Of a DNA stretch of 64,000 nucleotides, positions 3,856-48,475 are shown piece by piece. The translations under genes were made by a program, and so were the position numbers. The notes under the pieces are model-generated. The model was not told the DNA's origin. It did not search any database and saw only the letters and a program-made list of their open reading frames with translations. Origin of the DNA: Escherichia coli (GTDB lineage: Bacteria; Pseudomonadota; Gammaproteobacteria; Enterobacterales; Enterobacteriaceae); assembly GCF_044647545.1 (NCBI RefSeq), contig NZ_CP172818.1; one strand, given 5' to 3'. Positions within the stretch are counted from its first letter, which is position 1. The number at the start of each line of letters is the position of its first letter.

Positions 3856-4550
<695 letters not shown>

Positions 4551-4653
4551 AACCCGCCGATTGCGCTACAATGCCCGCCCTTAAAGTGGGGGCACTCCCC
4601 TAACCGCTTCATCAGGTGAAGCGGATCTGACCTGTCATCAGAACGAGAGAATT

Positions 4654-7980: not shown

Positions 7981-8014
7981 TCAAACTATTCTCTCTTGAA
8001 CCAGGGAAAATCCG

Positions 8015-8051
8015 TAATGCCGGATGCGGTGTAAACAACTTATCCGGCATA
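8015..8051. repeat. REP (repetitive extragenic palindromic) element
   Basis: Palindromic GCCGGATGCGGTGTAAACAACTTATCCGGCATAC motif between the convergent yegS and gatR. Confidence 0.6.
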
Positions 8052-8061
8052 CAGAACAATA

Positions 8062-8841
8062 CTACACCGTAATTAATTTCACTCGTGTCTTCTGCAATGC
8101 CAGTTTATCCACCTCTGACACAGCATCGTCGGTAATAATAATGTCAATTTTTTCGATTGGCAGTACCTGATTAAAACCGCGACGATTAAATTTCGATGAA
8201 TCGAGAACGGCAATCACTTTATTTGCGGCTGTGACCATCGCCCCGCTAATCGAATAGCCTTCATTAAAGGTCGTAATACCATTAACCGCATCAATACCAT
8301 CAGCACCGACAAACATTAAATCGGCATTAATATCCTGCAATGAACGCTCAGCAATGGAGCCATGCATCGAGCGCGTTTTATGGCGGACCGTGCCACCGCA
8401 GACGACCAGAGTAATGTCTTTATTTTCGGAAAGGGCAAATGCTGCCGGGAGACTGTTGGTAATCACCGTGATATTTTTGGCGGTCATTAATCCTTCGGCG
8501 ATAAGCATTGTCGTACTTCCGCTGTCGAGAATAACGGTCATCCCTTCGTGGATCATTTTGACTGCCGCCTGCGCTATTCTGTTTTTTGGCGCGCTGGCGA
8601 GCTGAAATCGCTCTTTAAACCCGACTTCCTGGGTCTCGGTTTCACTATTACCGGACATTATTTTCGCCGCACCGCCATGAAAGCGCGTAACCACGCCTTT
8701 TTGTTCGAGAAAGCGCAAATCGGCACGGATTGTCGCTTCCGAGGCAGCAAATACTCCCGCCAGATCCTGAACAAGCACGGTTCCCTGTTCATTCACTAAT
8801 TGGATGATCTTATTCCTTCGCTCGAATGAATTCATCGTCAT
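8062..8841 (-). CDS. gatR: DeoR-family repressor GatR of the galactitol operon, intact
   Basis: 259 aa uninterrupted; N-terminal HTH, C-terminal DeoR sugar-binding domain; directly upstream of gatD on the same strand. Confidence 0.88.
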   Translation of the reverse strand: MTMNSFERRNKIIQLVNEQGTVLVQDLAGVFAASEATIRADLRFLEQKGVVTRFHGGAAKIMSGNSETETQEVGFKERFQLASAPKNRIAQAAVKMIHEGMTVILDSGSTTMLIAEGLMTAKNITVITNSLPAAFALSENKDITLVVCGGTVRHKTRSMHGSIAERSLQDINADLMFVGADGIDAVNGITTFNEGYSISGAMVTAANKVIAVLDSSKFNRRGFNQVLPIEKIDIIITDDAVSEVDKLALQKTRVKLITV

Positions 8842-18124: not shown

Positions 18125-19086
18125 GCGGCGCTCGATTACACACGCTGCTGCCTGAATTAGCCACGCGTCAGCCGGTGATGGTCGTCGGCGCGGCGGTCAT
18201 TGATGTGATCGCCGACGCTTATGCCCTCCCCTGGCGTGGGTGCGATATCGAACTGAAACAGCAGAGCGTTAACGTTGGCGGCTGTGCACTGAATATTGCC
18301 GTGGCATTAAAGCGCCTCGGCATCGAAGCGGGTAATGCCTTGCCGCTCGGTCAGGGGGTGTGGGCGGAGATTATTCGCAACCGGATGGCAAAAGAGGACT
18401 TAATCAGCCTGATCGATAACGCCGAAGGTGATAACGGCTGGTGTCTGGCGCTGGTTGAGCCGGATGGCGAACGCACTTTTATGTCATTCAGCGGTGTGGA
18501 AAATCAGTGGAATCGCCAGTGGCTGGCGCGATTAACCGTTGCGCCTGGCAGCCTGCTCTATTTTTCCGGTTATCAACTGGCCTCGCCCTGCGGCGAATTG
18601 TTAGTGGAATGGCTGGAAGAGCTGCAAGACGTGACGCCATTTATCGATTTTGGCCCACGTATTGGCGATATCCCGGATGCATTACTGGCGCGGATCATGG
18701 CCTGTCGACCTTTAGTGTCACTCAATCGTCAGGAGGCTGAGATTGCCGCCGAACGTTTTGCTTTATCCGCAGAGATAACAACACTAGGCAAGCAATGGCA
18801 GGAGAAATTTGCTGCGCCGTTGATCGTTCGTCTCGATAAAGAGGGCGCATGGTATTTCAGCAACGACGCTTCTGGCTGCATTCCGGCATTTCCAACGCAA
18901 GTTGTAGACACCATTGGGGCGGGCGACAGTCATGCCGGCGGCGTACTTGCCGGGCTGGCCTCTGGTCTGCCACTGGCGGATGCCGTATTACTGGGCAATG
19001 CAGTGGCGTCGTGGGTTGTCGGGCATCGGGGCGGTGATTGTGCGCCAACGCGCGAGGAACTACTCCTCGCACACAAAAACGTATAG
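18121..19086 (+). CDS. yegV: PfkB/ribokinase-family sugar or nucleoside kinase YegV
   Basis: 321 aa; PfkB C-terminal motif (DTIGAGDSHAGG); start overlaps yegU stop (ATGA). Confidence 0.88.
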   Translation: MSGARLHTLLPELATRQPVMVVGAAVIDVIADAYALPWRGCDIELKQQSVNVGGCALNIAVALKRLGIEAGNALPLGQGVWAEIIRNRMAKEDLISLIDNAEGDNGWCLALVEPDGERTFMSFSGVENQWNRQWLARLTVAPGSLLYFSGYQLASPCGELLVEWLEELQDVTPFIDFGPRIGDIPDALLARIMACRPLVSLNRQEAEIAAERFALSAEITTLGKQWQEKFAAPLIVRLDKEGAWYFSNDASGCIPAFPTQVVDTIGAGDSHAGGVLAGLASGLPLADAVLLGNAVASWVVGHRGGDCAPTREELLLAHKNV

Positions 19087-19857: not shown

Positions 19858-20685
19858 TTAAGGCGTTTCTTTAATCCCATCAACGAATCCCTGCAACTCC
19901 TCCTCTGTGCCATTAAACACATTAAAATCCACCGGACCATTAATGCCATCTACCTGCCCACGGTCGGAATGCTGCCAGAAGCGCCAGGCCATGCCGTCAT
20001 TGTCCGGACGACGTTGATAGTAGTGAGCCACCCACCACGGATATTCATTGAAATAGCCCGCCAGATTCGTGTGATAAAAAACGGCTCCTGAGTAAATAAT
20101 CGGCTTTTTCCCCGTACTTTTTTCGACCATTTTTAGCCACTGACTTACCCGCTTGCGTAATTCTTTTGCCGATAATTTTCCCCGTTCTTCTACGTCCAGC
20201 ACGGCAGGGAAATCGCCTTGTGAGAAATCCACCGTTTGCAGAAATAATCTCGCCTGAACTGAAGCGGATACCGACGGGGAAAAATAATGATACGCCCCGC
20301 GCAGCAGGCCATTTTCGCGGCTTAGTTGCCAGTTACGCGAAAAATAGGGGTCCACCAGCTTTTCGCCTTCCGTCGCCTTAATAAAAGCAAACTGTAAGCG
20401 GATACCGTTGTCGCGCATTTTTGCCACCCGCTGCCAGTCGATCCGCTCCTGCCAGCGCGAAACATCTATTCCGTGAATGGTGTAACTGGCAGGAATGCGA
20501 ATAGCAAAAGATTTGACTGGACGATAACCGTAGAAGTGGATGTAGTCTTTAATCTGAATTGCTGTCGAGTAGAAAAAATTCACCGTCTGACGCGGATAAA
20601 TTGCAACGATGGAAATTAGCCCAAGAGCGCATAATAAAGCGGTGAATTTTTTTCGACTGGTGATTCTCAGCTGCATTGGTTTCAT
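19858..20685 (-). CDS. yegX: Glycoside hydrolase family 25 (lysozyme-like) protein YegX with N-terminal membrane anchor/signal
   Basis: 275 aa; hydrophobic N-terminus (FTALLCALGLISIVAIY) then GH25 catalytic region (GIDVSRWQ ... FAFIKATEG). Confidence 0.85.
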   Translation of the reverse strand: MKPMQLRITSRKKFTALLCALGLISIVAIYPRQTVNFFYSTAIQIKDYIHFYGYRPVKSFAIRIPASYTIHGIDVSRWQERIDWQRVAKMRDNGIRLQFAFIKATEGEKLVDPYFSRNWQLSRENGLLRGAYHYFSPSVSASVQARLFLQTVDFSQGDFPAVLDVEERGKLSAKELRKRVSQWLKMVEKSTGKKPIIYSGAVFYHTNLAGYFNEYPWWVAHYYQRRPDNDGMAWRFWQHSDRGQVDGINGPVDFNVFNGTEEELQGFVDGIKETP

Positions 20686-20740
20686 CCCTGAATGTCAGCG
20701 CCAAAGGCTGACAATAACCAAAGCAGCTATAGTACGGTGC

Positions 20741-21541
20741 TCACCACCAGGCGTGGAAGTGGTGAACCGGACCAATACCGTGACCAACTTCCAGCGTGTC
20801 GGCCTGGGCTAACGCCGATGAAAGCCAGCTTTTTGCCTCCTGTACGGTGTCAGCCCAGTTTGTATGGCGCGGGCGCAGTGCAGCCAACGCCGCAGAGAGC
20901 GTACAACCAGTGCCGTGAGTGTTTTTGGTCATAATGCGCGGTGCGGTAAACCGTTGTTCCCCCTCACGAGTAAACAGCCAGTCCGGGCTTTGCCCATCAT
21001 CCAGATGACCACCTTTCATTAGCACTGCGCCACAGCCCATCGCCAACAGCGATCGCCCTTGTTCCAGCATTTCCTGTTCGGTGCGCGCGTGTGGCGCGTC
21101 GAGCAAGGCGGCTGCTTCGGGCAAGTTTGGCGTTATTAATGAAACCTGTGGCAATAATCGACTGCGCAGCGTAGCAACCGCCGAAGGTGAAAGCAGCGGG
21201 TCGCCGCTTTTTGCCAGCATAACGGTGTCGAGTACCACGTTTTGGATCTGATAACGTTGCAACCGTTCTGCCACCGCTTCAACAATATCGGTTTCCGCCA
21301 ACATACCGATTTTAGTGGTGTCGATTCGCACATCACTGAACACCGAATCGAGCTGGGCGGCGACAAAATCAGGCTCAATGCGATACACCGACTGTACGCC
21401 ACGGGTATTTTGCGCCACCAGTGCAGTAATAACTGAGCAACCATAAGCGCCAAGTGCCGAGAAGGTTTTAAGATCGGCCTGAATCCCCGCACCACCACTC
21501 GGATCAGTACCGGCAATCGTCAGAGCGTTAATTCGTTTCAT
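20741..21541 (-). CDS. thiD: Hydroxymethylpyrimidine/phosphomethylpyrimidine kinase ThiD
   Basis: 266 aa; recognised ThiD; start overlaps thiM stop. Confidence 0.93.
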
Positions 21542-22326
21542 GCCTGCACCTCCTGCGTCAATTGCCAGAGCGCATCAAGGAAATGTGGAACAAAACTGCC
21601 TGGCCCCTCGCTTCTGGCAACTGCGCGTTCTCCGGCTTGTTTCATCCAGTGACAGGCAGATGCGATATTTTCCAACGTATCGCCTGGTAGCGCACAACAG
21701 GCAGCGACAACCGCCGATAATGCACAGCCAGTTCCTACCACTTTGGTCATTAGCGGATCGCCACCGTGAATGCCAACGATACGATGTCCATCGGTAACAT
21801 AATCCACCTCGCCAGTGACCACGACGATTGCGCCAGTTTCCCGTGCCAGTGTTTGTGCAGCAGGTATCGCGTTAGCTGCGGCATCAGTGGTATCCACTCC
21901 CCGTCCGCCATTAGCAACGCCAGCTAATGCCATGATTTCCGAAGCATTACCACGTATGGCGGTTGGCTTATGAGACAGAAGTTCCAGACAAAAACGGCGG
22001 CGATAATCGAGTGCACCCACCGCTACTGGATCAAGCGTCCAGGGTGTTTGAGAGCGTTTTGCCTGTTCAACGGCGGCACGCATCGCCTGTGCGCGTGGCT
22101 GCGTCAGCGTGCCAACGTTAATCAGCAACGCACTGGCGATTGCCGCAAACTGACTGGCCTCTTCGGTTTCGATGACCATCGCTGGCGATGCACCGAGCGC
22201 CAGTAAGGTATTGGCAGTAAAGGTTTGCACCACATCATTGGTCATACAGTGCACAAGGGGGGAATGTTTGTGAAAAAGATGTAACGCGTGCGCAGATTGC
22301 GCGGAACTCAGCAGGTCGACTTGCAT
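21538..22326 (-). CDS. thiM: Hydroxyethylthiazole kinase ThiM
   Basis: 262 aa; recognised ThiM; preceded by TPP riboswitch. Confidence 0.93.
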
Positions 22327-22334
22327 AGTTTGCT

Positions 22335-22455
22335 CCTGCCATAACGTGAAGAAGCAATGACCTGGTGGTCCGTGACTTCCCTACGCTGGCATTATCCAGA
22401 TCAGGTGATACGGGTATTTCTCAGCCTTCACGCAGAAGGGCACCCCGAGTCGTTT
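22335..22455 (-). promoter_or_regulatory. TPP (THI-box) riboswitch in thiMD 5' UTR
   Basis: Minus-strand sequence GGGGTGCCCTTCTGCGTGAAGGCTGAGAAATACCCGTATCACCTGATCTGGATAATGCCAGCGTAGGGAAGTCACGG matches the remembered E. coli thiM aptamer, including the CUGAGA motif. Confidence 0.85.
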
Positions 22456-22548
22456 GGTTGCGATAATAAATCGCAGAGGAGGATGGTAATGTCCAGCGCA
22501 CGCGTTGTAAACGGGGAAAAACGGCGGTATTACAATAACGTTGTGAAA

Positions 22549-33380: not shown

Positions 33381-33480
33381 TAAATTCCTAAAGTTGTTTT
33401 CTTGCGATTTTGTCTCTCTCTAACCCGCATAAATACTGGTAGCATCAGCATTCAACTGGATAAAATTACAGGGATGCAGA

Positions 33481-36400
33481 ATGAAACACTTTATCTATCA
33501 GGACGAAAAATCACATAAATTCTGGGCGGTGGAGCAGCAGGGAAACGAGTTGCATATCTGTTGGGGAAAAGTTGGCACCAAAGGGCAAAACCAGGTAAAA
33601 AGTTTTGCGGATGCTGCGGCGGCGGAAAAAGCGGAGCTGAAGCTGATTGCGGAGAAGGTGAAGAAGGGATATGTGGAGCAAGCGAAGGATAATTCTTTGC
33701 AACCTTCCCAAACGGTAACGGACTCTCTCAAGGTAGCGGACTTATCCACCATTATTCAGGAACAACCCTCTTTCGTAGCAGAAACCCGTGCGGCTGACAA
33801 AAATACAGACGTTATTTTACCGTGGCTGGCAAAAGATATTGCTGTCGTTTTTCCGCTTGAAGTCGTACCCACCACCTTAAGCCATCGCCGCTTTCCCGGA
33901 GATCCTGTTACACCTGTAGATAAATTAACCCAGTTACGTCGCTTAGCCTGTGGCGTGTCGCAACGGGATAACAAAACAGCTACATTTGACTTCAGCGCCT
34001 GTACTTTAGAGTGGCAAAACTTCATCGCTCAGGCGATCGATCTGATTAACAGCCCGAAAACGACAAAATTACCATCACCGGTAATGGCTGTACTCGCGGC
34101 ACTTGAACTGCACTGTACGAGATATAAAGAGCGTGAGGATGTTATGGATCAGATTATTCAGGAAGGCGGTCTGGAATATGCTACTGATGTAATAATACAT
34201 CTTCAACAAATATCTATTGAATGGGATTATGTCAACAATAATATTGTTTTCCTGTCGTCTGGCATTTCACCTGATTACTTGCAGCAATATTCCAGCTTTG
34301 AATTACGCCTACGTAAACATTTATCACTGGCGGAAGAGTCTCTCTGGCAAAAATGTGCACAAAAACTTATTGCCGCAGTTCCACATATTCCAGAATGGCG
34401 GCAACCATTAATTGCTTTGTTATTACCCGAAAAACCAGAAATTGCACATGAAATTGCCCAGCGTCTACTGGGGCAAAAGAAATTACCCTCGCTTGAGTGG
34501 CTAAAAATAGTGGCGACTGATGAGCACATTCTTGCCTCATTAGAAAAATATCACGAGCCATATGCCATTTTTGATGATTACTATTGTGGTGCGATATGGT
34601 CAGCCACCGTATTACAGGAGCAAGGTGTTGCAGCCCTGCCCCGATTTGCACCCTATGTCGCAAGTGACTACTGCGCCGATGTGTTGAGTCATATCAATCA
34701 TCCGTTCGCATTAACACTGCTTATACGTGTAGCCGGGCATACTAAACGCTGTCACGATCGAATGACGAAAGCCTGCGCTGCGTTCCCACACGCAGCACTG
34801 GCAGCACTGGCGGAACTTCTAGTGCAAAAAGAAGAGAATAGTTGGCGCATTATGCTAATGACGATGCTTATCTCGCAACCTACACTAGCAGAACAGGTCA
34901 TTCCCTGGCTTTCGACACCCGCAGTTGCAGTGCTGAAATCATGCCAGCAACAACTGAAACAGCCCTCAAACCATGCCAGTGCCGATCTACTGCCGGCCAT
35001 AGTAGTCTCCCCACCATGGCTTTCGAAAAAGAAAAAATCGCCGATTCCGGTGCTTGATTTAGCACCGCTCAACCTCGAATCCATATGCACAATAACCGAC
35101 ACAGAAGCTAAAGAGTTTCAAACTCATTGGGACTGGGAACCGCATAAGCCAGGTGAAGGTGCTAAAGATTTCCTTTACTCGCTGGGGTATCGCCGCTGGG
35201 ATTTTGACACATATAAATATATCGGCGCTTCTGACTCGGCAATTGACGCATGGGAACGTGAGGACTTCGCTACACTCATCCAAATGTTTAAAGCCCACCA
35301 TGCACCGTATCAGGGGGAGTGGCATCTCAACTCACTTCCCTTTTTACCTATGCAAAAAGCGATTAAACTATGGGAATTTCTCAGCAAAGAGCCGCATACC
35401 GCGGTAAAACCTGTCATGCTTTATTTGCGACTGGCAGGTATGAGTGGTTTTCTACACTCGTTTTCACGCTACCCTCAAGAAGGTTTTGCGGTTGCTAATT
35501 ATTTTGCCGCAACGGAACTGGCTCCTGCCGTCGCCCGCGCCTTTAACAAACTCAAAACTCTACGACAAGACGCCCGCACCTGGCTGCTGAAATATCCGGA
35601 ACATGCCATTACCGGCCTGTTGCCTGCGGCACTCGGCAAAGCCGGTGAATCCCAGGATAACGCCCGTGCCGCTTTACGTATGTTGATTGAAAATGGTTAT
35701 CCGTCATTACTGCAAGAAATCGCCCAGCGTTATAACCAGCCGGAAGTAACCGATGCGGTGAACGCTCTACTTGCGCTCGATCCCTTAGATAATCACCCGA
35801 CTAAAATCCCGACACTTCCGGCCTTTTATCAGCCATCGCTCTGGACGCGCCCGGTATTAAAAGCAAACGCCCAATCACTGCCAGATAGCGCCCTCTTCCA
35901 CCTCGGTGAAATGCTCCGCTTCCCTCAGGAAGATACGCTGTATCCGGGGTTATTACAGGTGAAAGACGCCTGTACTGCCGACTCACTGGCTGAGTTTGCC
36001 TGGGATCTGTTTACCGCCTGGCAGACCGCTGGCGTGCCGTCGAAAGAGAGCTGGGCGTTCACTGCATTAGGTGTTCTTGGCAACGGTGACACCGCCCGCA
36101 AACTGACGCCATTAATCCGCGCCTGGCCTGGCGAATCTCAGCATAAACGTGCCACCGTTGGGTTGGATATTCTCGCTGCTATCGGCAGCGATATCGCCCT
36201 GATGCAGCTTAACGGCATCGCCCAGAAACTGAAATTCAAAGCCTTACAGGAGCGGGCGAAAGAAAAAATTGCCGACATTGCCGAAAGTCGCGAACTCACA
36301 GTGGCAGAACTTGAAGATCGGTTAGCACCGGATCTCGGTCTGGATGATAACGGTTCGCTGCTGCTGGATTTCGGGCCACGGCAGTTCACCGTCAGCTTTG

Positions 36401-37269
36401 ATGAAACCTTAAAACCGTTTGTGCGTGATGCTTCCGGCAGCCGCCTGAAAGACTTGCCTAAACCGAACAAAAGCGATGATGAAACCCAAGCGAACGATGC
36501 AGTTAACCGCTACAAACTGTTGAAAAAAGATGCGCGTACCGTTGCCGCCCAGCAGGTAGCAAGGCTGGAATCCGCCATGTGCCTACGCCGCCACTGGTCG
36601 CCGGAAAACTTCCAGCTATTCCTGGTTGAGCATCCGCTGGTTCGCCACTTAACCCGCCGTCTGATTTGGGGCGTTTATAGCACCGAAAACGAGCTACTGG
36701 CCTGTTTCCGGGTGGCAGAAGATAACAGCTACAGCACCGCTGACGATGATCTTTTCACCCTGCCGGAAGGCGATATCTCTATTGGTATTCCTCACGTTCT
36801 GGAAATATCACCGACGGATGCCGCCGCCTTTGGTCAGCTTTTTGCCGACTACGAACTTTTACCGCCGTTCCGTCAGCTCGACCGCAACAGTTATGCCCTG
36901 ACTGAAGTCGAACGCAACGCCAGCGAACTAACCCGCTGGGCAGGCAGAAAATGCCCGAGCGGTCGGGTTATGGGGCTGTCGAATAAAGGCTGGGTGCGTG
37001 GTGAACCGCAGGACGGTGGCTGGATCGGCTGGATGATCAAACCTCTGGGCCGCTGGTCATTAATCATGGAAATCGATGAAGGATTTGCAGTTGGTATGTC
37101 GCCAGCCGAACTCAGTGCCGAGCAACTCTTAAGCAAGCTGTGGCTATGGGAAGGCAAAGCAGAAAGCTATGGCTGGGGGAGTCATTCAACACAGGAAGCG
37201 CAGTTCTCCGCACTCGATGACATCACCGCCAGCGAGTTGATTAACGATATTGAAGCCCTGTTTGAATAA
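33481..37269 (+). CDS. molR: Giant WGR-domain + DUF4132 protein MolR (intact form of the K-12 molR/yehG-yehH pseudogene)
   Basis: 1262 aa single ORF; N-terminal WGR-like segment (HKFWAVEQQGNELHICWGKVGTKGQ); remainder collinear with yehI. Confidence 0.85.
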   Translation: MKHFIYQDEKSHKFWAVEQQGNELHICWGKVGTKGQNQVKSFADAAAAEKAELKLIAEKVKKGYVEQAKDNSLQPSQTVTDSLKVADLSTIIQEQPSFVAETRAADKNTDVILPWLAKDIAVVFPLEVVPTTLSHRRFPGDPVTPVDKLTQLRRLACGVSQRDNKTATFDFSACTLEWQNFIAQAIDLINSPKTTKLPSPVMAVLAALELHCTRYKEREDVMDQIIQEGGLEYATDVIIHLQQISIEWDYVNNNIVFLSSGISPDYLQQYSSFELRLRKHLSLAEESLWQKCAQKLIAAVPHIPEWRQPLIALLLPEKPEIAHEIAQRLLGQKKLPSLEWLKIVATDEHILASLEKYHEPYAIFDDYYCGAIWSATVLQEQGVAALPRFAPYVASDYCADVLSHINHPFALTLLIRVAGHTKRCHDRMTKACAAFPHAALAALAELLVQKEENSWRIMLMTMLISQPTLAEQVIPWLSTPAVAVLKSCQQQLKQPSNHASADLLPAIVVSPPWLSKKKKSPIPVLDLAPLNLESICTITDTEAKEFQTHWDWEPHKPGEGAKDFLYSLGYRRWDFDTYKYIGASDSAIDAWEREDFATLIQMFKAHHAPYQGEWHLNSLPFLPMQKAIKLWEFLSKEPHTAVKPVMLYLRLAGMSGFLHSFSRYPQEGFAVANYFAATELAPAVARAFNKLKTLRQDARTWLLKYPEHAITGLLPAALGKAGESQDNARAALRMLIENGYPSLLQEIAQRYNQPEVTDAVNALLALDPLDNHPTKIPTLPAFYQPSLWTRPVLKANAQSLPDSALFHLGEMLRFPQEDTLYPGLLQVKDACTADSLAEFAWDLFTAWQTAGVPSKESWAFTALGVLGNGDTARKLTPLIRAWPGESQHKRATVGLDILAAIGSDIALMQLNGIAQKLKFKALQERAKEKIADIAESRELTVAELEDRLAPDLGLDDNGSLLLDFGPRQFTVSFDETLKPFVRDASGSRLKDLPKPNKSDDETQANDAVNRYKLLKKDARTVAAQQVARLESAMCLRRHWSPENFQLFLVEHPLVRHLTRRLIWGVYSTENELLACFRVAEDNSYSTADDDLFTLPEGDISIGIPHVLEISPTDAAAFGQLFADYELLPPFRQLDRNSYALTEVERNASELTRWAGRKCPSGRVMGLSNKGWVRGEPQDGGWIGWMIKPLGRWSLIMEIDEGFAVGMSPAELSAEQLLSKLWLWEGKAESYGWGSHSTQEAQFSALDDITASELINDIEALFE

Positions 37270-37278
37270 GGAAAGAAC

Positions 37279-40200
37279 ATGGACAAGGAATTACCGTGGC
37301 TGGCGGATAACGCCCAACTGGAACTGAAATATAAAAAAGGCAAAACACCACTCAGCCATCGCAATTGGCCGGGCGAACCGGTGCCTGTTATCACTGAAAA
37401 CCTCATCCAGACACTGGGTGATAAATTGCTACACATTGCTGAGAAGAAAAAAAACATTGTCTGGCGTTATGAAAATTTTTCACTGGAATGGCAGTCCGCC
37501 ATCACGCAGGCCATCAACTTGATCGGCGAGCACAAACCCTCAATTCCGGCCCGGACAATGGCGGCGCTAGCCTGTATCGCGCAAAATGATAGCCAACAGT
37601 TACTCGACGAAATCGTCCAACAAGAGGGACTGGAATATGCGACTGAAGTGGTGATTGCACGCCAGTTTATTGTACGGTGTTATGAGAGTGATCCTCTGGT
37701 AGTAACATTGCAGTATCAGAAGGAGGACTATGGCTATGGCTATGGCTATGGTTATCGCTCAGAAACCTATAACGAATTCGATCTCCGACTGCGTAAGCAT
37801 CTCTCTCTGGCAGAGGAAAGCTGCTGGCAGCGTTGCGCCGACAAACTCATTGCCGCACTGCCAGGACTACCCCAAGTTCGCCGTCCTTTTATTGCACTCA
37901 TCCTCCCGGAAAAACCAGAAATCGCCAATGAGTTGGTAGGCCTTGAATGCCCGTGGACTCATTTTCATTCTAAGGAGTGGTTAAAAGTTGTTGCTACTGA
38001 CCACAGGGCAGTGGGAAAACTCGAACGCTACTGGAGCCAGGATATATTTAGCGATCGCGAAGCCAGCTACATGTCGCATGAAAACCACTTCGGCTACGCG
38101 GCCTGCGCCGCCCTTTTGCGCGAACAAGGAATTGCAGCCGTTCCACGCCTCGCGATGTATGCCCATAAAGAAGATTGCGGTAGCCTGCTGGTAAAAATTA
38201 ACCATCCGCAGGTCATCCGCACCCTGCTGTTAGTTGCTGATAAAAACAAACCCAGCCTGCAACGTGTGGCTAAATACAGTAAAAACTTCCCCCATGCGAC
38301 GCTTGCCGCACTGGCAGAGCTTCTGGCGTTAAAAGAACCGCCTGCACGCCCTGGTTATCCAATCATCGAAGACAAAAAGCTGCCTGCACAGCAAAAAGCT
38401 CGAGATGAATACTGGCGTACGCTGTTACAAACGCTGATGGCATCGCAGCCACAACTGGCAGAAGAGGTGATGCCGTGGTTAAGTACTCAAGCCCAGGCAG
38501 TGCTGGATAGTTATTTATCGGCACCGCCCAAAACGGTTATTGATAGCACCGATAACATCCAAATGCCTGAAATCCTCGTTTCACCACCGTGGCGTAGTAA
38601 GAAAAAAATGACAGTTCCACGTCTTGATTTGGCACCGTTCGAATTAACGCCGCAAGTTTACTGGCAACCAGGCGAACGAGAGAGGCTTGCCGCCACTGAG
38701 TCTGCCCGTTATTTCAGCACGGAATCTCTTGCGGAACGCATGGAACAAAAAAGTGGACGAGTTGTATTACAGGAGCTGGGTTTTGGAGATGATGTATGGC
38801 TGTTTTTGAATTATATACTCCCCGGAAAACTGGATGCTGCACGCAATTCACTCATTGTTCAGTGGCATTACTACCCAGGGCGGGTTGAAGAGATCATGAA
38901 TGGCTGGAGCTCCCCGGAAGCTCAATTAGCAGAACAGGCGCTTCGCAACGGTCACGTAGAAGTGTTAATTAACATATGGGAAAATGACAGCTACTCACGC
39001 TATCGTCGGGAAAAGAGTATCTGGAACCTGTATTTATTGGCGCAGTTGCCGCGTGAGATGGCTTTGACTTTCTGGCTACGTATCAATGAGAAAAAGCATC
39101 TGTCTGCGGGAGAGGACTATTTTCTCAGTATCTTCGGATTGGATGCTCTACCAGGTCTGCTGTTGGCTTTTTCACATCGTCCAAAAGAAACATTTCCATT
39201 AATTTTAAATTTCGGCGCAACAGAACTGGCCCTGCCCGTTGCCCGCGTCTGGCGACGTTTCGCGGCGCAGCGTGATCTGGCTCGCCAGTGGATTTTACAT
39301 TGGTCGGAACATACAGCTACTGCACTTATCCCTCTTGTCTTCACCAAATCCAGCGATAATAGCGAAGCTGCATTACTTGCCCTGCGTTTACTTTACGAAC
39401 AGGGACATGGCGAGTTACTGCAAACCGTGGCAAACCGCTGGCAGCGTACAGATGTATGGCCTGCCCTGGAGCAATTACTTAAACAGAGTCCAATAGAGAT
39501 TTACCCGACACGCATTCCAAAAGCCCCTGATTTCTGGCAGCCGGCAATGTGGTCCAGACCGAGACTTATCACGAATAATCAACCTGTTACTGATGATGCT
39601 CTGGAAATTATCGGCGAAATGCTGCGCTTTACCCAGGGCGGACGTTTTTATTGTGGGCTGGAACAACTGAAAACGTTCTGCCAGCCACAAACGCTGGCCG
39701 CTTTTGCCTGGGATCTCTTTACCGCGTGGCAACAAGTTGGCGCCCCCGCAAAAGACAACTGGGCATTTCTGGCGTTAAGTCTCTTCGGTGACGAAAGCAC
39801 GGCTCGGGATCTGACAACACAGATCCTCGCCTGGCCACAGGAAGGCAAATCTGCCCGTGCCGTCAGTGGCCTGAACATACTTACCCTGATGAATAATGAT
39901 ATGGCGCTGATACAGCTGCATCATATATCGCAACGGGCGAAATCCCGTCCCTTACGTGATAACGCGGCGGAATTTCTTCAGGTGGTCGCAGAAAATCGTG
40001 GACTAAGCCAGGAAGAGTTAGCGGACAGATTAGTCCCAACACTGGGCCTGGATGATCCGCAGGCGTTGATATTTGATTTTGGTCCCCGGCAGTTTACCGT
40101 TCGCTTCGATGAAAACCTCAACCCGGTTATCTTTGATCAGCAAAACGTTCGCCAGAAAAGCATTCCCCGGTTGCGCGCCGATGACGATCAGCTGAAAGCG

Positions 40201-40923
40201 CCCGAGGCTCTGGCCCGACTTAAAGGGCTAAAAAAAGATGCCACTCAGGTGAGCAAAAACCTGCTCCCGCGTCTTGAAACAGCCCTACGCACCACCCGAC
40301 GCTGGTCGCTGGCAGATTTTCATTCTCTGTTTGTTAATCATCCCTTTACCCGTCTGGTTACCCAGCGATTAATATGGGCGGTTTATCCAGCAAATGAACC
40401 GCGTCGTTTACTCAACGCCTTTCGTGTGGCCGCAGAGGGGGAATTCTGCAACGCACAAGATGAGCCAATTGACCTGCCTGCCGATGCCCTGATTGGCATT
40501 GCCCACCCGTTAGAAATGACAGCAGAAATGCGCAGTGAATTTGCACAGCTTTTTGCCGATTACGAAATTATGCCGCCTTTTCGCCAGTTGACGCGGCGCA
40601 CAGTGCTGCTCACGCCTGACGAGTCAGCCAGTAATAGTTTGAATCGCTGGGAAGGTAAATCTGCTACCGTTGGGCAACTTATGGGAATGCGATACAAAGG
40701 CTGGGAGTCAGGCTATGAGAACGCATTTGTCTATGACCTGGGCGAGTACCGGCTGGTCCTTAAGTTTTCATCCGGTTTTAACCACTACAATGTTGATAGC
40801 AAAGCGCTAATGAGCTTCCGTTCTCTTCATGTATACCGTGACAATAAATCTGTCACTTTTGCCGAACTTGATGTGTTTGATTTGAGTGAAGCGTTAAGCG
40901 CACCCGACGTCATTTTCCATTAA
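37279..40923 (+). CDS. yehI: Giant DUF4132 protein YehI, tandem paralog of MolR lacking the WGR domain
   Basis: 1214 aa; long collinear similarity to MolR (DLRLRKHLSLAEES.WQ.CA.KLIAA.P ... FPHA.LAALAELL ... FGPRQFTV.FDE); internal GYGYGYGY repeat. Confidence 0.85.
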   Translation: MDKELPWLADNAQLELKYKKGKTPLSHRNWPGEPVPVITENLIQTLGDKLLHIAEKKKNIVWRYENFSLEWQSAITQAINLIGEHKPSIPARTMAALACIAQNDSQQLLDEIVQQEGLEYATEVVIARQFIVRCYESDPLVVTLQYQKEDYGYGYGYGYRSETYNEFDLRLRKHLSLAEESCWQRCADKLIAALPGLPQVRRPFIALILPEKPEIANELVGLECPWTHFHSKEWLKVVATDHRAVGKLERYWSQDIFSDREASYMSHENHFGYAACAALLREQGIAAVPRLAMYAHKEDCGSLLVKINHPQVIRTLLLVADKNKPSLQRVAKYSKNFPHATLAALAELLALKEPPARPGYPIIEDKKLPAQQKARDEYWRTLLQTLMASQPQLAEEVMPWLSTQAQAVLDSYLSAPPKTVIDSTDNIQMPEILVSPPWRSKKKMTVPRLDLAPFELTPQVYWQPGERERLAATESARYFSTESLAERMEQKSGRVVLQELGFGDDVWLFLNYILPGKLDAARNSLIVQWHYYPGRVEEIMNGWSSPEAQLAEQALRNGHVEVLINIWENDSYSRYRREKSIWNLYLLAQLPREMALTFWLRINEKKHLSAGEDYFLSIFGLDALPGLLLAFSHRPKETFPLILNFGATELALPVARVWRRFAAQRDLARQWILHWSEHTATALIPLVFTKSSDNSEAALLALRLLYEQGHGELLQTVANRWQRTDVWPALEQLLKQSPIEIYPTRIPKAPDFWQPAMWSRPRLITNNQPVTDDALEIIGEMLRFTQGGRFYCGLEQLKTFCQPQTLAAFAWDLFTAWQQVGAPAKDNWAFLALSLFGDESTARDLTTQILAWPQEGKSARAVSGLNILTLMNNDMALIQLHHISQRAKSRPLRDNAAEFLQVVAENRGLSQEELADRLVPTLGLDDPQALIFDFGPRQFTVRFDENLNPVIFDQQNVRQKSIPRLRADDDQLKAPEALARLKGLKKDATQVSKNLLPRLETALRTTRRWSLADFHSLFVNHPFTRLVTQRLIWAVYPANEPRRLLNAFRVAAEGEFCNAQDEPIDLPADALIGIAHPLEMTAEMRSEFAQLFADYEIMPPFRQLTRRTVLLTPDESASNSLNRWEGKSATVGQLMGMRYKGWESGYENAFVYDLGEYRLVLKFSSGFNHYNVDSKALMSFRSLHVYRDNKSVTFAELDVFDLSEALSAPDVIFH

Positions 40924-40983
40924 AACACAGCGGGCAGTGATGCGACTGCCCGTTATTAACACGACCTGCCACCGGGGGAAGCG

Positions 40984-41304
40984 ATGATCGTGCAAAAAGA
41001 GCTGGTCACTATTTACGATTATGAGGCCCCTGTACCTGAAGAGCCGTTTTCCTTCAGACTTGAGATCCATAAATGCTCTGAATTATTTACAGGTTCCATC
41101 TACCGGCTGGAGCGATTCCGGCTACATCCAACATTTCATCAACGTGATCGAGAGGATATCGACCCGCTAATAAATGATGCGTTGATTTATATAAGAGATG
41201 AGTTTATTGATGAGCGAAAATTACGGGGCGAATCACCAGAAACGGTAATAGCCATTTTTAATCGTGAACTACAGAATATATTCAACCAAGAAATAGAAAA
41301 ATAG
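40984..41304 (+). CDS. yehK: Small uncharacterized protein YehK
   Basis: 106 aa; no recognisable domain; AT-rich codon usage unlike neighbours; hairpin terminator immediately downstream (~41309-41336). Confidence 0.7.
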   Translation: MIVQKELVTIYDYEAPVPEEPFSFRLEIHKCSELFTGSIYRLERFRLHPTFHQRDREDIDPLINDALIYIRDEFIDERKLRGESPETVIAIFNRELQNIFNQEIEK

Positions 41305-41469
41305 CTTTATTAAAGGGGGAAACGGTATTCCCCTTTAGATGTGTTTTATTTTCCCGTTACTCAAAAAAATAAATAAACCGAAAAAAAGCCACTAATAGCT
41401 CCAGTACGGAAATAAGCAGGGTTAATTTTTTGTCAGTGTGTCCATCCCTTCTCTTTATAAAGGAGGGCA

Positions 41470-41560
41470 ACACCACTTTTTACCTACCCCCCCCTTTATT
41501 TTTTTTATTCGAACCATTTCCCCCCCGAAGGCCCCCCCCCCCCCCCCCCAACCCTTGAAA
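41470..41560. other. Anomalous low-complexity stretch with poly-C (17 nt), poly-T and C-rich runs; probable sequencing/assembly artefact
   Basis: Direct reading: ...tacctacccccccctttattttttttattcgaaccatttcccccccgaaggcccccccccccccccccaaccc...; same character as the 3856-4550 anomaly. Confidence 0.55.
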
Positions 41561-41704
41561 TGGGTTCGATCCGGCGCAACGTCCCAACAGTCAGGATTAT
41601 AAATCTCATTATCTTAATTGCAACGGGGTCCACCGATGGTTATAATTCGTTCGTTGGAACACGATGTTGCACAGGCCGTGGTGTTAGGCCTGAAAGTAGT
41701 AAAT

Positions 41705-41738
41705 AAAAGAACCTGCCTCACCAGCAGGTTTTTTTATT
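41705..41738 (+). terminator. Rho-independent terminator-like hairpin upstream of yehL
   Basis: AACCTGC-CTCACCA-GCAGGTT followed by T7; ~110 bp upstream of yehL start. Confidence 0.55.
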
Positions 41739-41846
41739 TACTGTGATCTGTTTCCCAGATATTTTCCGCTCAAACAACTAATGCGCCAAACATTTATTGC
41801 GCGTAAAATATCGTTTATTTCATTAATACATTTCAGGGATGAATAT

Positions 41847-42935
41847 ATGTCACCGCAGAATAATCATCTGCAGCGTCCGCCTGTCGCTGTGTTATACGCC
41901 GATGAACTGGCAAAATTAAAACAAAATGATCACGCACCTTGCCCGCCCGGTTGGCAGTTAAGTTTGCCTGCGGCCCGTGCTTTTATCCTTGGCGATAGCG
42001 CGCAAAATATTAGCCGTAAAGTGGTGATTAGTCCCTCCGCTGTCGAACGCATGTTAGTCACTCTTGCCACCGGGCGCGGTTTGATGTTGGTGGGGGAACC
42101 TGGCACCGCAAAATCTCTCCTGTCTGAATTACTGGCAACCGCTATTAGCGGCGATGCCGGGTTAACCATCCAGGGCGGCGCATCTACCACTGAAGATCAA
42201 ATCAAGTACGGCTGGAACTACGCTCTGCTTATCAACCATGGTCCGTCAACGGAAGCACTGGTCCCTGCCCCGCTTTACCAGGGAATGCGCGACGGCAAAA
42301 TCGTCCGTTTTGAAGAGATAACGCGTACACCGCTGGAAGTACAAGACTGTCTGTTAGGTATGCTTTCTGACAGGGTAATGACGGTGCCGGAACTCACTGG
42401 TGAAGCCAGTCAGCTCTATGCGCGAGAAGGCTTTAATATTATTGCCACTGCCAATACCCGCGATCGCGGCGTCAATGAAATGAGCGCTGCGCTAAAGCGT
42501 CGATTCGATTTTGAAACGGTCTTTCCGATTATGGATTTCGCCCAGGAACTGGAACTGGTCGCCAGTGCTTCGGCGCGTTTATTGGCCCATAGTGGCATTC
42601 CGCATAAAGTGCCTGACGCGGTACTGGAGTTACTGGTACGCACCTTCCGCGATCTGCGTGCCAACGGCGAAAAGAAAACGTCAATGGATACACTGACAGC
42701 GATTATGTCCACCGCTGAAGCCGTGAACGTAGCCCACGCTGTGGGTGTCCGCGCCTGGTTTTTAGCGAATCGCGCAGGTGAGCCAGCCGATCTGGTGGAC
42801 TGTATTGCCGGAACCATCGTTAAAGATAACGAAGAAGATCGCGCTCGTCTGCGCCGTTACTTCGAACAGCGTGTCGCCACACATAAAGAAGCTCACTGGC
42901 AGGCTTATTATCAAGCCCGCCACCGCCTGCCGTGA
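41847..42935 (+). CDS. yehL: MoxR-family AAA+ ATPase YehL
   Basis: 362 aa from MSPQNNHLQRPP; Walker A LVGEPGTAKS; Walker B region IVRFEEITRTPLEVQDCLLGML; MoxR-like C-terminal helical region. Confidence 0.88.
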   Translation: MSPQNNHLQRPPVAVLYADELAKLKQNDHAPCPPGWQLSLPAARAFILGDSAQNISRKVVISPSAVERMLVTLATGRGLMLVGEPGTAKSLLSELLATAISGDAGLTIQGGASTTEDQIKYGWNYALLINHGPSTEALVPAPLYQGMRDGKIVRFEEITRTPLEVQDCLLGMLSDRVMTVPELTGEASQLYAREGFNIIATANTRDRGVNEMSAALKRRFDFETVFPIMDFAQELELVASASARLLAHSGIPHKVPDAVLELLVRTFRDLRANGEKKTSMDTLTAIMSTAEAVNVAHAVGVRAWFLANRAGEPADLVDCIAGTIVKDNEEDRARLRRYFEQRVATHKEAHWQAYYQARHRLP

Positions 42936-42945
42936 GGAAAGATGC

Positions 42946-45225
42946 ATGAGCGAGCCGTTAATTGTCGGCATCCGGCATCATAGCCCGGCCTGCGCCCGGC
43001 TGGTGAAATCGTTAATCGAAAGCCAGCGGCCACGATACGTGTTGATTGAAGGCCCGGCTGATTATAATGACCGGGTAGACGAACTGTTTTTAGCCCACCA
43101 GCTTCCGGTAGCTATTTACAGTTATTGCCAGTATCAGGACGGTGCAGCCCCCGGGCGTGGTGCCTGGACGCCATTTGCTGAATTTTCGCCGGAGTGGCAG
43201 GCGCTACAAGCCGCTCGTCGTATTCAGGCACAAACTTACTTCATCGATTTGCCTTGCTGGGCGCAGAGTGAAGAAGAGGACGATTCGCCTGATACGCATG
43301 AGGAAAGCCAGACCTTGCTGCTGCATGCCACCCGCATGGATAACAGCGACACCCTGTGGGATCACTTGTTCGAAGATGAAAGCCAGCAAACTGCATTACC
43401 CTCTGCACTGGCGCACTATTTTGCCCAACTGCGGGGCGACTCCCCCGGAGATGCTCTCAATCGTCAGCGCGAAGCCTTTATGGCCCGCTGGATTGCATGG
43501 GCGATGCAGCAAAATAATGGCGACGTGTTAGTTGTCTGCGGTGGCTGGCACGCTCCGGCACTGGCAAAAATGTGGCGCGAATGCCCGCAAGAAATTAACA
43601 AGCCAGAATTGCCGTCGCTGGCAGATGCCGTTACAGGTTGCTATCTCACGCCATACAGTGAAAAGCGCCTTGATGTGCTGTCAGGATACCTTTCAGGAAT
43701 GCCTGCCCCGGTCTGGCAAAACTGGTGCTGGCGGTGGGGCTTGCAGCAGGCAGGTGAACAACTACTGAAAACGGTTCTTACCCGTTTGCGCCAGCACCAC
43801 TTGCCTGCTTCAACAGCGGATATGGCTGCCGCTCATCTGCATGCGATGGCACTGGCACAGTTGCGCGGTCATACACTACCGTTACGCACTGACTGGCTGG
43901 ATGCTATAGCCGGCTCGCTGATCAAAGAAGCCCTGAACGCGCCGTTGCCGTGGAGCTATCGCGGCGTTATTCATCCCGATACCGATCCGATTCTGCTAAC
44001 GTTGATAGACACATTAGCGGGTGACGGATTCGGTAAACTTGCCCCCTCGACGCCACAGCCACCTCTGCCAAAAGATGTCACCTGCGAACTGGAACGTACC
44101 GGAATCTCTTTTCCGGCGGAGCTTACCTTAAATCGCTTTACCCCCGATGGACTGGCGCAAAGTCAGGTGTTACATCGGCTGGTAATACTGGAGATCCCAG
44201 GGGTTGTGCGCCAGCAGGGAAGTACACTGACACTTGCAGGCAACGGTGAAGAACGCTGGAAATTAACCCGCCCGCTTAGCCAACATGCGGCATTAATTGA
44301 GGCCGCCTGCTTTGGTGCCACACTCCAGGAAGCCGCACGCCATAAATTAGAAGCCGATATGCTGGACGCGGGTGGAATCGGCAGTATCACCACATGTCTT
44401 AGCCAGGCGGCGTTAGCGGGTCTGGCGTCCTTCAGTCAACAATTACTGGAGCAACTTACATTATTAATCGCCCAGGAAAATCAGTTTGCCGAAATGGGCC
44501 AGGCGCTGGAAGTGCTATACGCCTTATGGCGGCTGGATGAAATTAGCGGTATGCAAGGCGCGCAGATATTACAGACGACGTTATGCGCAGCTATCGATCG
44601 CACACTCTGGCTGTGTGAATCCAACGGCAGACCGGATGAAAAGGAGTTTCACGCTCACCTGCATAGCTGGCAAGCGCTTTGCCATATCCTGCGCGATCTA
44701 CATAGCGGCGTTAATTTACCCGGCGTTTCGCTTTCTGCGGCGGTAGCCTTACTGGAGCGCCGCAGTCAGGCGATTCATGCCCCGGCGCTGGATCGCGGCG
44801 CGGCTCTTGGCGCACTAATGCGTCTGGAACATCCCAACGCCAGTGCCGAAGCGGCGCTGACGATGCTGGCGCAGTTATCCCCGGCACAATCCGGCGAGGC
44901 GCTGCACGGTTTGCTGGCATTAGCCCGTCATCAACTGGCCTGTCAGCCGGCATTTATCGCCGGTTTCAGTAGTCATTTAAATCAACTGAGTGACGACGAT
45001 TTTATTAACGCCCTGCCCGATTTACGCGCGGCGATGGCCTGGCTACCACCACGAGAACGCGGGACGCTGGCGCATCAGGTGCTTGAGCATTACCAGCTCG
45101 CACAGCTTCCCATTTCAGCGCTGCAAATGCCGTTGCATTGTCCACCGCAAGCCATTGCACATCATCAACAACTCGAACAGCAGGCACTGGCATCGCTGCA
45201 ACACTGGGGAGTTTTCCATGTCTGA
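42946..45225 (+). CDS. yehM: Large uncharacterized protein YehM
   Basis: 759 aa from MSEPLIVGIRHHSPA (ATG at 42946, 10 bp after yehL stop); no domain I can assign; stop overlaps yehP start. Confidence 0.8.
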   Translation: MSEPLIVGIRHHSPACARLVKSLIESQRPRYVLIEGPADYNDRVDELFLAHQLPVAIYSYCQYQDGAAPGRGAWTPFAEFSPEWQALQAARRIQAQTYFIDLPCWAQSEEEDDSPDTHEESQTLLLHATRMDNSDTLWDHLFEDESQQTALPSALAHYFAQLRGDSPGDALNRQREAFMARWIAWAMQQNNGDVLVVCGGWHAPALAKMWRECPQEINKPELPSLADAVTGCYLTPYSEKRLDVLSGYLSGMPAPVWQNWCWRWGLQQAGEQLLKTVLTRLRQHHLPASTADMAAAHLHAMALAQLRGHTLPLRTDWLDAIAGSLIKEALNAPLPWSYRGVIHPDTDPILLTLIDTLAGDGFGKLAPSTPQPPLPKDVTCELERTGISFPAELTLNRFTPDGLAQSQVLHRLVILEIPGVVRQQGSTLTLAGNGEERWKLTRPLSQHAALIEAACFGATLQEAARHKLEADMLDAGGIGSITTCLSQAALAGLASFSQQLLEQLTLLIAQENQFAEMGQALEVLYALWRLDEISGMQGAQILQTTLCAAIDRTLWLCESNGRPDEKEFHAHLHSWQALCHILRDLHSGVNLPGVSLSAAVALLERRSQAIHAPALDRGAALGALMRLEHPNASAEAALTMLAQLSPAQSGEALHGLLALARHQLACQPAFIAGFSSHLNQLSDDDFINALPDLRAAMAWLPPRERGTLAHQVLEHYQLAQLPISALQMPLHCPPQAIAHHQQLEQQALASLQHWGVFHV

Positions 45226-48351: not shown

Positions 48352-48475
48352 AATAGTGCTTTTTACTAAGAGTTCTACTCCAGTTCCGGACTGCTCACGC
48401 CACAGTATTAGGCATATCCTATATAGCCCCTGGTGAGAGTCACCAGTTCCTTGATTAAATAAAATGGAGTTTTAC

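Follow-up and report, generated by a model that had tools for sequence, protein, structure and literature searches.

In most descriptions, Escherichia coli cleaves the glycan strands of its wall by means of lytic transglycosylases. One of these enzymes, MltG, is an inner-membrane-anchored endolytic lytic transglycosylase with a YceG fold, which produces anhydro ends; it is conserved widely and its role has been demonstrated. DigH (YddW) is an E. coli hydrolase of denuded glycans; it is an outer-membrane lipoprotein that is recruited to the septum and is non-essential. Membrane-held muramidases are also encoded by phages. The SAR endolysins, such as P1 Lyz and phage 21 R, are Sec-exported muramidases of a T4-lysozyme-like family with an N-terminal membrane-embedded segment, and this Gly/Ala-rich SAR segment is part of the catalytic domain. 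In glycoside hydrolase family 25 (GH25), every characterised enzyme known to us is a muramidase, and E. coli peptidoglycan is a good substrate for enzymes of this family. GH25 proteins include Cellosyl (Streptomyces coelicolor, 1JFX) and BaGH25c (Bacillus anthracis, 2WAG), which are secreted, soluble Gram-positive enzymes, and the phage endolysins Psm (phiSM101, 4KRU/4KRT), PlyB (2NW0), CTP1L (5A6S) and the TP-84 endolysin, which are modular, carry C-terminal cell-wall-binding domains, are encoded in lysis cassettes and belong to phages of Gram-positive hosts.

The yegX gene of E. coli lies in a stretch of 64,000 nucleotides that was analysed as a whole (the window), and its product was compared with each of these systems. 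The predicted structure of YegX has the GH25 barrel of Cellosyl and BaGH25c (TM score, 0.81 to 0.85; rmsd, 2.0 to 2.5 Å), with 32 to 33% identity to these proteins and the same catalytic Asp and D-x-E motif; YegX differs from them in a predicted location in a Gram-negative periplasm and in the addition of a tail, a putative transmembrane helix and a 40-residue module. The catalytic domain is also that of the GH25 phage endolysins, but YegX has no binding domain, its gene has no lysis neighbours and its identity to phage records is at most 41%. In contrast to the SAR endolysins, YegX has an ordinary helix that is followed by a spacer and then a GH25 domain, and its gene lies outside any phage. 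MltG resembles the predicted YegX protein in having a single N-terminal anchor and a periplasmic glycan-cleaving domain near the membrane and could be the best functional analogy for the site of action of YegX; the two proteins differ in fold, and YegX would, by its family, be hydrolytic. DigH and YegX are both non-essential in E. coli and are of unrelated families. Taking the lines of evidence described below together, we consider it probable that YegX is an inner-membrane-tethered periplasmic N-acetylmuramidase, which is non-essential, is vertically inherited and is transcribed largely by read-through from thiMD.

A 275-codon open reading frame (ORF) was present on the minus strand at positions 19858 to 20685 in the ORF list of the window. 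In a RefSeq genome identical (100%) to this DNA, yegX starts at the second ATG, at position 20676, giving a protein of 272 amino acids, and the K-12 annotation does likewise. A GGGA Shine-Dalgarno-like element was found 8 nt upstream of this ATG, while the ATG at 20685, three codons upstream and in frame, directly abuts the purine run. The homologues of YegX all aligned from M4 of the 275-aa ORF, which corresponds to the ATG at 20676. The RefSeq start, the Shine-Dalgarno spacing and the homologue alignments indicated that 20676 is the likelier start, a correction of 9 nt that places the coding sequence at 19858 to 20676; residue numbers given here are those of the 275-aa ORF. The gene order in the window was the gat operon, fbaB, yegTUV, yegW, yegX, thiD, thiM, rcnR, rcnA, rcnB and the yeh fimbrial genes, and yegX was the sole annotated GH25 gene. 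A first-pass annotation, made from the sequence alone, had described a GH25 lysozyme-like ORF with a hydrophobic N-terminal segment between a regulator gene and thiD; the ORF is real, its neighbours are yegW, which encodes a GntR/UTRA regulator, and thiD, and the hydrophobic segment was found. This description is correct and mostly ordinary. The gene is a long-annotated and already known E. coli core gene, with a GH25 assignment in every E. coli annotation (the RefSeq product name is 'glycoside hydrolase family 25 protein'), and the description made here repeats what databases already state correctly. An NCBIfam profile search with YegX gave no match. In the searchable literature, no enzymatic, localisation or phenotype data on YegX were found, and mentions of the gene were confined to lists of screen or transcriptome results; in the literature searched, YegX belongs to the E. 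coli genes without an experimental function. What is added here to the annotation is the firm exclusion of a phage origin, the family-wide anchored architecture, the combination of selection and dispensability, and a lead on thiamine.

The catalytic domain was located at residues 73 to 248 (positions 19942 to 20469, minus strand) by Pfam, by sequence matches to the PDB and by Foldseek. The PF01183 (Glyco_hydro_25) profile was matched over all of its 180 positions (E = 1e-54; score, 186 bits; cut-off, 27), which is far above chance. The PDB entries nearest in sequence were the B. anthracis GH25 protein 2WAG (E = 8e-34), the Psm endolysin 4KRU and Cellosyl 1JFX (E = 1.5e-26). An AlphaFold2 model of YegX, built on 59 homologues, had a pLDDT of 89.1 and a pTM of 0.80. 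When this model was compared with the PDB by Foldseek, the best 18 matches were all GH25 structures; 2WAG and 1JFX each matched the model with an E value of 2.6e-18 (TM scores of 0.85 and 0.81, respectively), with an rmsd of 2.0 Å to 2WAG.

The putative first catalytic Asp, Asp74, is encoded by a GAT codon at 20464 to 20466 within the GIDVS motif, and the GH25 D-x-E motif is present as Asp164-Val-Glu166 (GAC GTA GAA; 20188 to 20196), both read on the minus strand of the window and confirmed by alignment. Profile alignment paired D74, D164 and E166 with D9, D98 and E100 of Cellosyl (1JFX), which we take, from the literature on this structure, to be its catalytic residues. The first-pass annotation had proposed that conservation of the catalytic Asp and Glu residues be checked; no loss was seen, as all three residues were invariant across the alignment of 59 homologues. 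Every computable feature of GH25 membership, namely the profile, the barrel fold and the catalytic acids, was found in YegX. GH25 enzymes are given as muramidases in one published account (PMC7954357). The GH25 (Chalaropsis-type lysozyme) domain of YegX would most likely hydrolyse the MurNAc-β-1,4-GlcNAc bond by means of Asp74 and Asp164-x-Glu166, and the products would be reducing MurNAc ends, unlike the 1,6-anhydro ends generated by lytic transglycosylases. If active, YegX would add a hydrolytic muramidase to a toolkit thought to be reliant on lytic transglycosylases.

Upstream of the catalytic domain, YegX has a tail, a hydrophobic helix and a spacer. The tail, MQLRITSRKK (positions 20647 to 20676, minus strand), is basic and is predicted from its charge bias to be cytoplasmic. 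A single hydrophobic helix, FTALLCALGLISIVAIY (residues 14 to 30; positions 20596 to 20646, minus strand), is predicted by Kyte-Doolittle (KD) hydropathy and the AlphaFold model to be a signal-anchor. The hydrophobic segment covered residues 13 to 31, its best 19-mer had a mean KD value of 1.84, and it was the only hydrophobic stretch in the protein; in the model, the N-terminal helix was placed at residues 11 to 29. Basic residues (R, R, K and K) precede the helix, and the net charge was +4 before the helix versus +2 after it. The spacer (residues 31 to 70; positions 20476 to 20595, minus strand) was delimited by conservation, length constraint and the model, in which it formed a predicted helix (31 to 50) and a beta hairpin (54 to 65); positions Y54, F60, I62, I64 and P65 were invariant or nearly so in the homologue alignment.

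This organisation was a property of the family. One hydrophobic 19-mer with a KD value of at least 1.73 was detected in 59 of 59 homologues (42 to 99% identity), preceded by N-terminal tails of up to 69 aa (median, 33). Measured over 15 residues on each side of the helix, the family median net charge was +7 on the N-terminal side and +2 on the C-terminal side, and the distance from the helix to HGIDVS was 31 to 43 residues in the homologues and 39 in YegX. A HMMER search of 1.84 billion representatives detected 24,108 GH25 relatives, with 1,126 clusters (50% identity) at E values of ≤1e-30, and the helix layout was shared by 100 of 115 further single-domain top representatives, in which the median spacer was 32 residues. 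A chromosomal homologue from Acinetobacter had the same order of tail, helix, linker and GH25 domain, with a shorter linker. Judged by sequence, some 1,100 protein clusters, most of them from Bacteroidota, have the anchored layout, and YegX, if active, would represent a Gram-negative family of membrane-anchored lysozymes with roughly a thousand sequence clusters.

These features suggested an uncleaved N-in/C-out (type II) anchor with a periplasmic GH25 domain, a topology that we infer at the level of the family since the long basic tails of the homologues are incompatible with signal peptides. YegX would be a bitopic protein that crosses the inner membrane once, its short basic tail left in the cytoplasm and its GH25 domain held in the periplasm behind a spacer of some 40 residues, and the periplasmic, membrane-anchored placement proposed in the first-pass annotation gains support from the predicted anchor and the positive-inside charge bias. 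A cleaved form is possible for the E. coli protein itself, as its tail is short and I26-V27-A28, which is followed by I, is compatible with the −3/−1 rule of signal peptidase; the hydrophobic core of about 11 to 17 residues would also suit a Sec signal peptide cut after Ala28, which would release YegX as a soluble periplasmic lysozyme able to reach the sacculus. Relatives at 45 to 57% identity have tails (median, 33 residues; up to 69) that are unlike classical signal peptides and cores of about 19 residues, and the spacer is conserved and constrained in length, all of which argues for an anchor and makes a free enzyme the less likely form. A lipoprotein was ruled out by a test for the lipobox [LVI][ASTVI][GAS]C, as Cys19 is preceded by A-L-L and Leu is unfit at position −1.

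With the tethered form preferred, action would be expected near the membrane because the tether is short and fixed in length; the likelier substrates would then be glycan strands that are nascent or un-cross-linked, or soluble fragments from turnover, and not the mature sacculus. Since E. coli peptidoglycan is a good substrate for the family, an active periplasmic GH25 enzyme should be dangerous to the cell and would have to be tightly controlled, weakly expressed or restricted in its substrate.

A muramidase with an N-terminal anchor recalls the SAR endolysins P1 Lyz and phage 21 R, and YegX could in principle be a domesticated or decaying SAR endolysin from a prophage lysis cassette, inactive in the membrane and freed on depolarisation. 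GH25 is indeed a common endolysin domain, as the first-pass annotation had noted: PHROGs endolysin families matched YegX at an E value of 8e-47 and matches were found in phage sequences. That part of the statement stood, while the closest relatives of YegX proved to be chromosomal membrane-anchored enzymes, at least hundreds in number. A tblastn search of YegX against 50,697 phage records gave nothing above 41% identity, and the best two full-length matches were chromosomal DNA filed as phage. One of these was a human-gut contig with prmA and Bacteroidales-like outer-membrane proteins; the other was an 'Acinetobacter phage' contig with yicG, yoaE, dinP and creBCD, on which the YegX-like protein had an N-terminal helix and the motifs GFDVS and IDLE. 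A PHROG of unknown function matched residues 153 to 272 with an E value of 1e-82, which is most simply explained as a fragment of yegX itself caught in a prophage prediction.

The location outside any prophage held on examination of the surrounding DNA. No phage genes were annotated in positions 1 to 49,947 of the window in the identical RefSeq genome; by the same annotation no holin, spanin, integrase, tail or capsid gene lay within tens of kilobases of yegX, and a PADLOC search with YegX and YegW gave no match. Neither was a recurring lysis-gene neighbour present beside yegX-like genes in 78 Bacteroidota loci. SAR segments and ordinary anchors cannot be told apart by mean hydrophobicity alone, and so the two were judged by Gly/Ala content and the spacer: Gly and Ala made up 21% of the YegX helix (family median, 11%), so that the helix is not Gly/Ala-rich, and 39 residues separate it from the catalytic domain. 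Together with the fixed chromosomal position and the divergence values given below, and with relatives in unrelated chromosomal contexts, these findings largely refuted an origin from a SAR endolysin, which we regard as very improbable. These results indicated that yegX is a chromosomal gene and is neither a phage remnant nor a phage endolysin.

The 2.6-kb yegW-yegX-thiD segment was found in 5,424 of 5,426 complete E. coli genomes, almost always in a single copy, and the context was kept in 5,417 genomes (coverage of ≥80%). Values of dN/dS (Nei-Gojobori) were 0.08 to 0.10 for yegX, 0.06 to 0.12 for thiM and 0.02 to 0.05 for thiD and yegW. Comparisons with Salmonella and E. fergusonii were saturated at synonymous sites (dS > 1), and the analysis was limited to the ratios and to comparisons between closer relatives. 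In the comparison with E. albertii, dS was 0.87 for yegX and 0.72 to 0.83 for the flanking thi genes; in that with a divergent Escherichia lineage, it was 0.39 for yegX and 0.39 to 0.50 for the thi genes. As the dS of yegX matches that of thiD and thiM, the gene has aged together with its neighbours. Overall, these analyses indicated that yegX is old, vertically inherited and under purifying selection. Recent transfer had been considered from the GC content, which was about 0.48 in yegX compared to 0.52 to 0.55 in the neighbours; this difference was too mild and was contradicted by the dS values.

Homologues were detected beyond E. coli and Shigella with an uneven distribution. A Salmonella homologue had 68% identity, and the named members of its cluster were mainly from subsp. 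indica, with salamae and some enterica; the E. fergusonii cluster (78% identity) was very small. A homologue with 55% identity was present in an uncultured betaproteobacterium whose HemN was about 75% identical to Chromobacteriaceae sequences. Sphingobacteriales and Chitinophagales contributed at least hundreds of homologues, with 41 to 57% identity over nearly full-length alignments. In a species survey that covered 600 genome stretches among the matches listed, the anchored GH25 family was dense in Bacteroidota and patchy in Proteobacteria, a pattern that is compatible with an old transfer into an ancestor of Escherichia and Salmonella and subsequent losses; with this coverage, no absence from other Enterobacterales is read from the survey.

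Neighbourhood clustering of 78 Bacteroidota loci detected no universally conserved partner gene. In about 22 to 31 of these loci, the GH25 gene was flanked by genes for a dipeptide epimerase and an M20 dipeptidase. The dipeptidase matched NCBIfam NF006053 above the cut-off, and the epimerase belongs to the enolase superfamily, with best PDB matches to 3Q45 and to the L-Ala-D/L-Glu epimerase YkfB (1JPM). This adjacency hints at a role in peptidoglycan turnover; it was largely confined to Pedobacter-like genomes and hence may reflect shared ancestry, not function. These neighbours would also suit a catabolic or recycling role, in which a protein of GH25 fold acts on another substrate, such as a HexNAc envelope glycan or imported fragments, or serves for binding only. 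The dispensability of the gene and the distinct conserved N-terminal module of the subfamily would fit such a role, but the catalytic triad and many other residues in the active-site region are invariant in the 59 homologues, and YegX resembles biochemically proven muramidases at 32 to 33% identity and an rmsd of 2.0 to 2.5 Å. A different substrate or a binding role is therefore improbable, and muramidase activity is the preferred reading.

The first-pass annotation had also suggested a housekeeping or stress-linked function for this hydrolase. The Keio yegX deletion mutant is viable and has been included in screens (PMC11502571, PMC12457515), and only mild sensitivities were reported for Keio yegX mutants in screens with boron compounds. 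Among complete E. coli genomes, one had a yegX gene split by two IS elements and another had a frameshift, and truncated Shigella/E. coli YegX products were common among the database clusters. The existence of these disrupted and frameshifted alleles indicated that yegX is dispensable, which fits an accessory rather than a housekeeping role. An important housekeeping function, as this part of the proposal would have it, is made doubtful by the inactivated alleles and by the patchy occurrence of the gene in Salmonella and E. fergusonii. For a link to stress, the single lead is the co-repression of yegX with thiamine genes.

The thiM and thiD genes lie upstream of yegX (positions 20741 to 22457, minus strand, by annotation), with a TPP riboswitch at 22361 to 22457, and are separated from yegX by a spacer of 64 nt (20677 to 20740, minus strand). 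[quoted passage not shown] The log2 fold changes were −3.75, −6.42 and −3.80 for yegX and −3.74, −5.56 and −4.09 for thiD, so that the repression of yegX followed that of thiD, and of thiCEFGH, strain by strain; yegW was missing from the differential-expression lists of the three strains (PMC6729007). A scan for promoters and terminators detected no site on the coding strand in the thiD-yegX or yegX-yegW spacers and nothing above shuffled expectation. Co-repression with thiD and the lack of a terminator-like site between the genes suggested read-through from thiM and thiD into yegX. Transcription of yegX by read-through from the riboswitch-controlled thiMD operon, a reading that draws on one expression study, thus seems fairly probable. 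Databases give yegX as a separate transcription unit, and a genomic SELEX study put an RNA polymerase site in the thiD-yegX spacer; membership of yegX in an iModulon was not found in the iModulon supplementary tables.

The co-repression, and the fact that yegX adjoins thiMD in E. coli, E. albertii, an E. fergusonii-like strain and Salmonella, would be in keeping with a function in thiamine salvage, in which YegX processes an external precursor for ThiM and ThiD. GH25 chemistry is, however, unrelated to thiazole or HMP. The side on which yegX adjoins thiMD varies: in Salmonella, rcnB is followed by yegX-thiM-thiD-yegW, with yegX on the other side of thiMD and upstream of the riboswitch gap, so that control would not be shared, and on the E. 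fergusonii-like contig, yegX follows thiD and yegW is replaced. No thi genes adjoin the relatives in Neisseriales, Acinetobacter and Bacteroidota. A role in thiamine salvage is hence scarcely credible, and the location of the Salmonella copy and of these relatives indicated that the link between yegX and the thi genes is probably positional rather than functional.

A broader proposal, which we hold as tentative and at low confidence, is that E. coli keeps a tethered hydrolytic lysozyme that trims nascent or un-cross-linked strands, is coupled to the thiM riboswitch and represents a module widespread in Bacteroidota and scattered Proteobacteria. If this were true, the reducing MurNAc ends would escape recycling through the anhydro-muropeptide route, expression would be tied to thiamine limitation and the anchored GH25 module would be a widespread enzyme of peptidoglycan turnover in these groups. 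The apparent riboswitch coupling provides a regulatory lead that is cheap to test.

A hairpin, TGTCAGC-N7-GCTGACA, was present in the thiD-yegX spacer at 20693 to 20713 and was not followed by a U-tract. No regulatory RNA is claimed for this spacer since its predicted fold was not significantly more stable than that of shuffled sequences (z = −1.9), despite one compensatory change of G-C to T-A in the stem. Across Escherichia species, the spacer had a column identity of 91%.

The yegX gene may be an unannotated third member of the TPP-riboswitch-controlled thiMD operon (window 20677-22457, minus strand). No terminator-like site was detected on the minus strand in the thiD-yegX interval, and in three enterohemorrhagic E. 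coli strains the changes in yegX mRNA followed those of thiD and other thi genes (PMC6729007). The spacer between thiD and yegX exhibited 91% conservation across E. coli, E. albertii and one E. fergusonii-like strain and contained a minus-strand hairpin, TGTCAGC-N7-GCTGACA (window 20693-20713), whose stem had one compensatory change, from G-C to T-A, in the same comparison. No U-tract followed the stem of this hairpin.

The position of yegX was examined in other enterobacteria. A homologue with 68% identity was present in Salmonella enterica (L002 6001-8714), where it was located between rcnB and the riboswitch gap and hence upstream of thiM, whereas the Escherichia gene is downstream of thiD. 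Named members of the Salmonella cluster were chiefly from subsp. indica, with others from salamae and some from enterica. On the E. fergusonii-like contig (L001 2631-8574), yegW was replaced after yegX by genes for two large proteins of the DUF6493/DUF7824/DUF7825 type together with one SWIM-domain protein. In the window, a DUF4132/SWIM/VWA cluster (yehH-yehQ) was observed at 33477-48380.

Two records from a phage collection, MT838172.1 and CAKLQH020000037.1, each had a YegX-like gene. One of the pair carried prmA and outer-membrane proteins and the other yicG, yoaE, dinP and creBCD, and both records look like bacterial chromosome fragments. A further match was obtained with phrog_23704, an entry of 134 positions with no assigned function, which aligned with the C-terminal residues 153 to 272 of YegX (window 19858-20226; E = 1e-82). 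This entry is probably a piece of yegX caught in a prophage prediction and not a phage family.

In approximately 22 to 31 of the 78 Bacteroidota loci with an anchored GH25 gene, this gene was flanked on both sides: upstream, in the same orientation, by a gene for an M20 dipeptidase and downstream, on the opposite strand, by one for a dipeptide epimerase of the enolase superfamily with a relationship to L-Ala-D/L-Glu epimerase (for example, L017 and L037, around 8001-8800). These loci may represent a neighborhood for catabolism of peptidoglycan peptides.

Natural yegX knockouts were detected among E. coli loci (L086 1829-4778 and L085 2501-3323), the gene being interrupted by two IS5-family elements in strain FLI21 and frameshifted in strain WCHEC035123. 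Elsewhere in the window, the convergent yegV (plus strand) and yegW (minus strand) genes had a 27-bp overlap of their 3' ends (19060-19086), and an annotated ParD/ParE-type toxin-antitoxin pair was present in the yegP-yegQ interval of the source strain (3960-4554).
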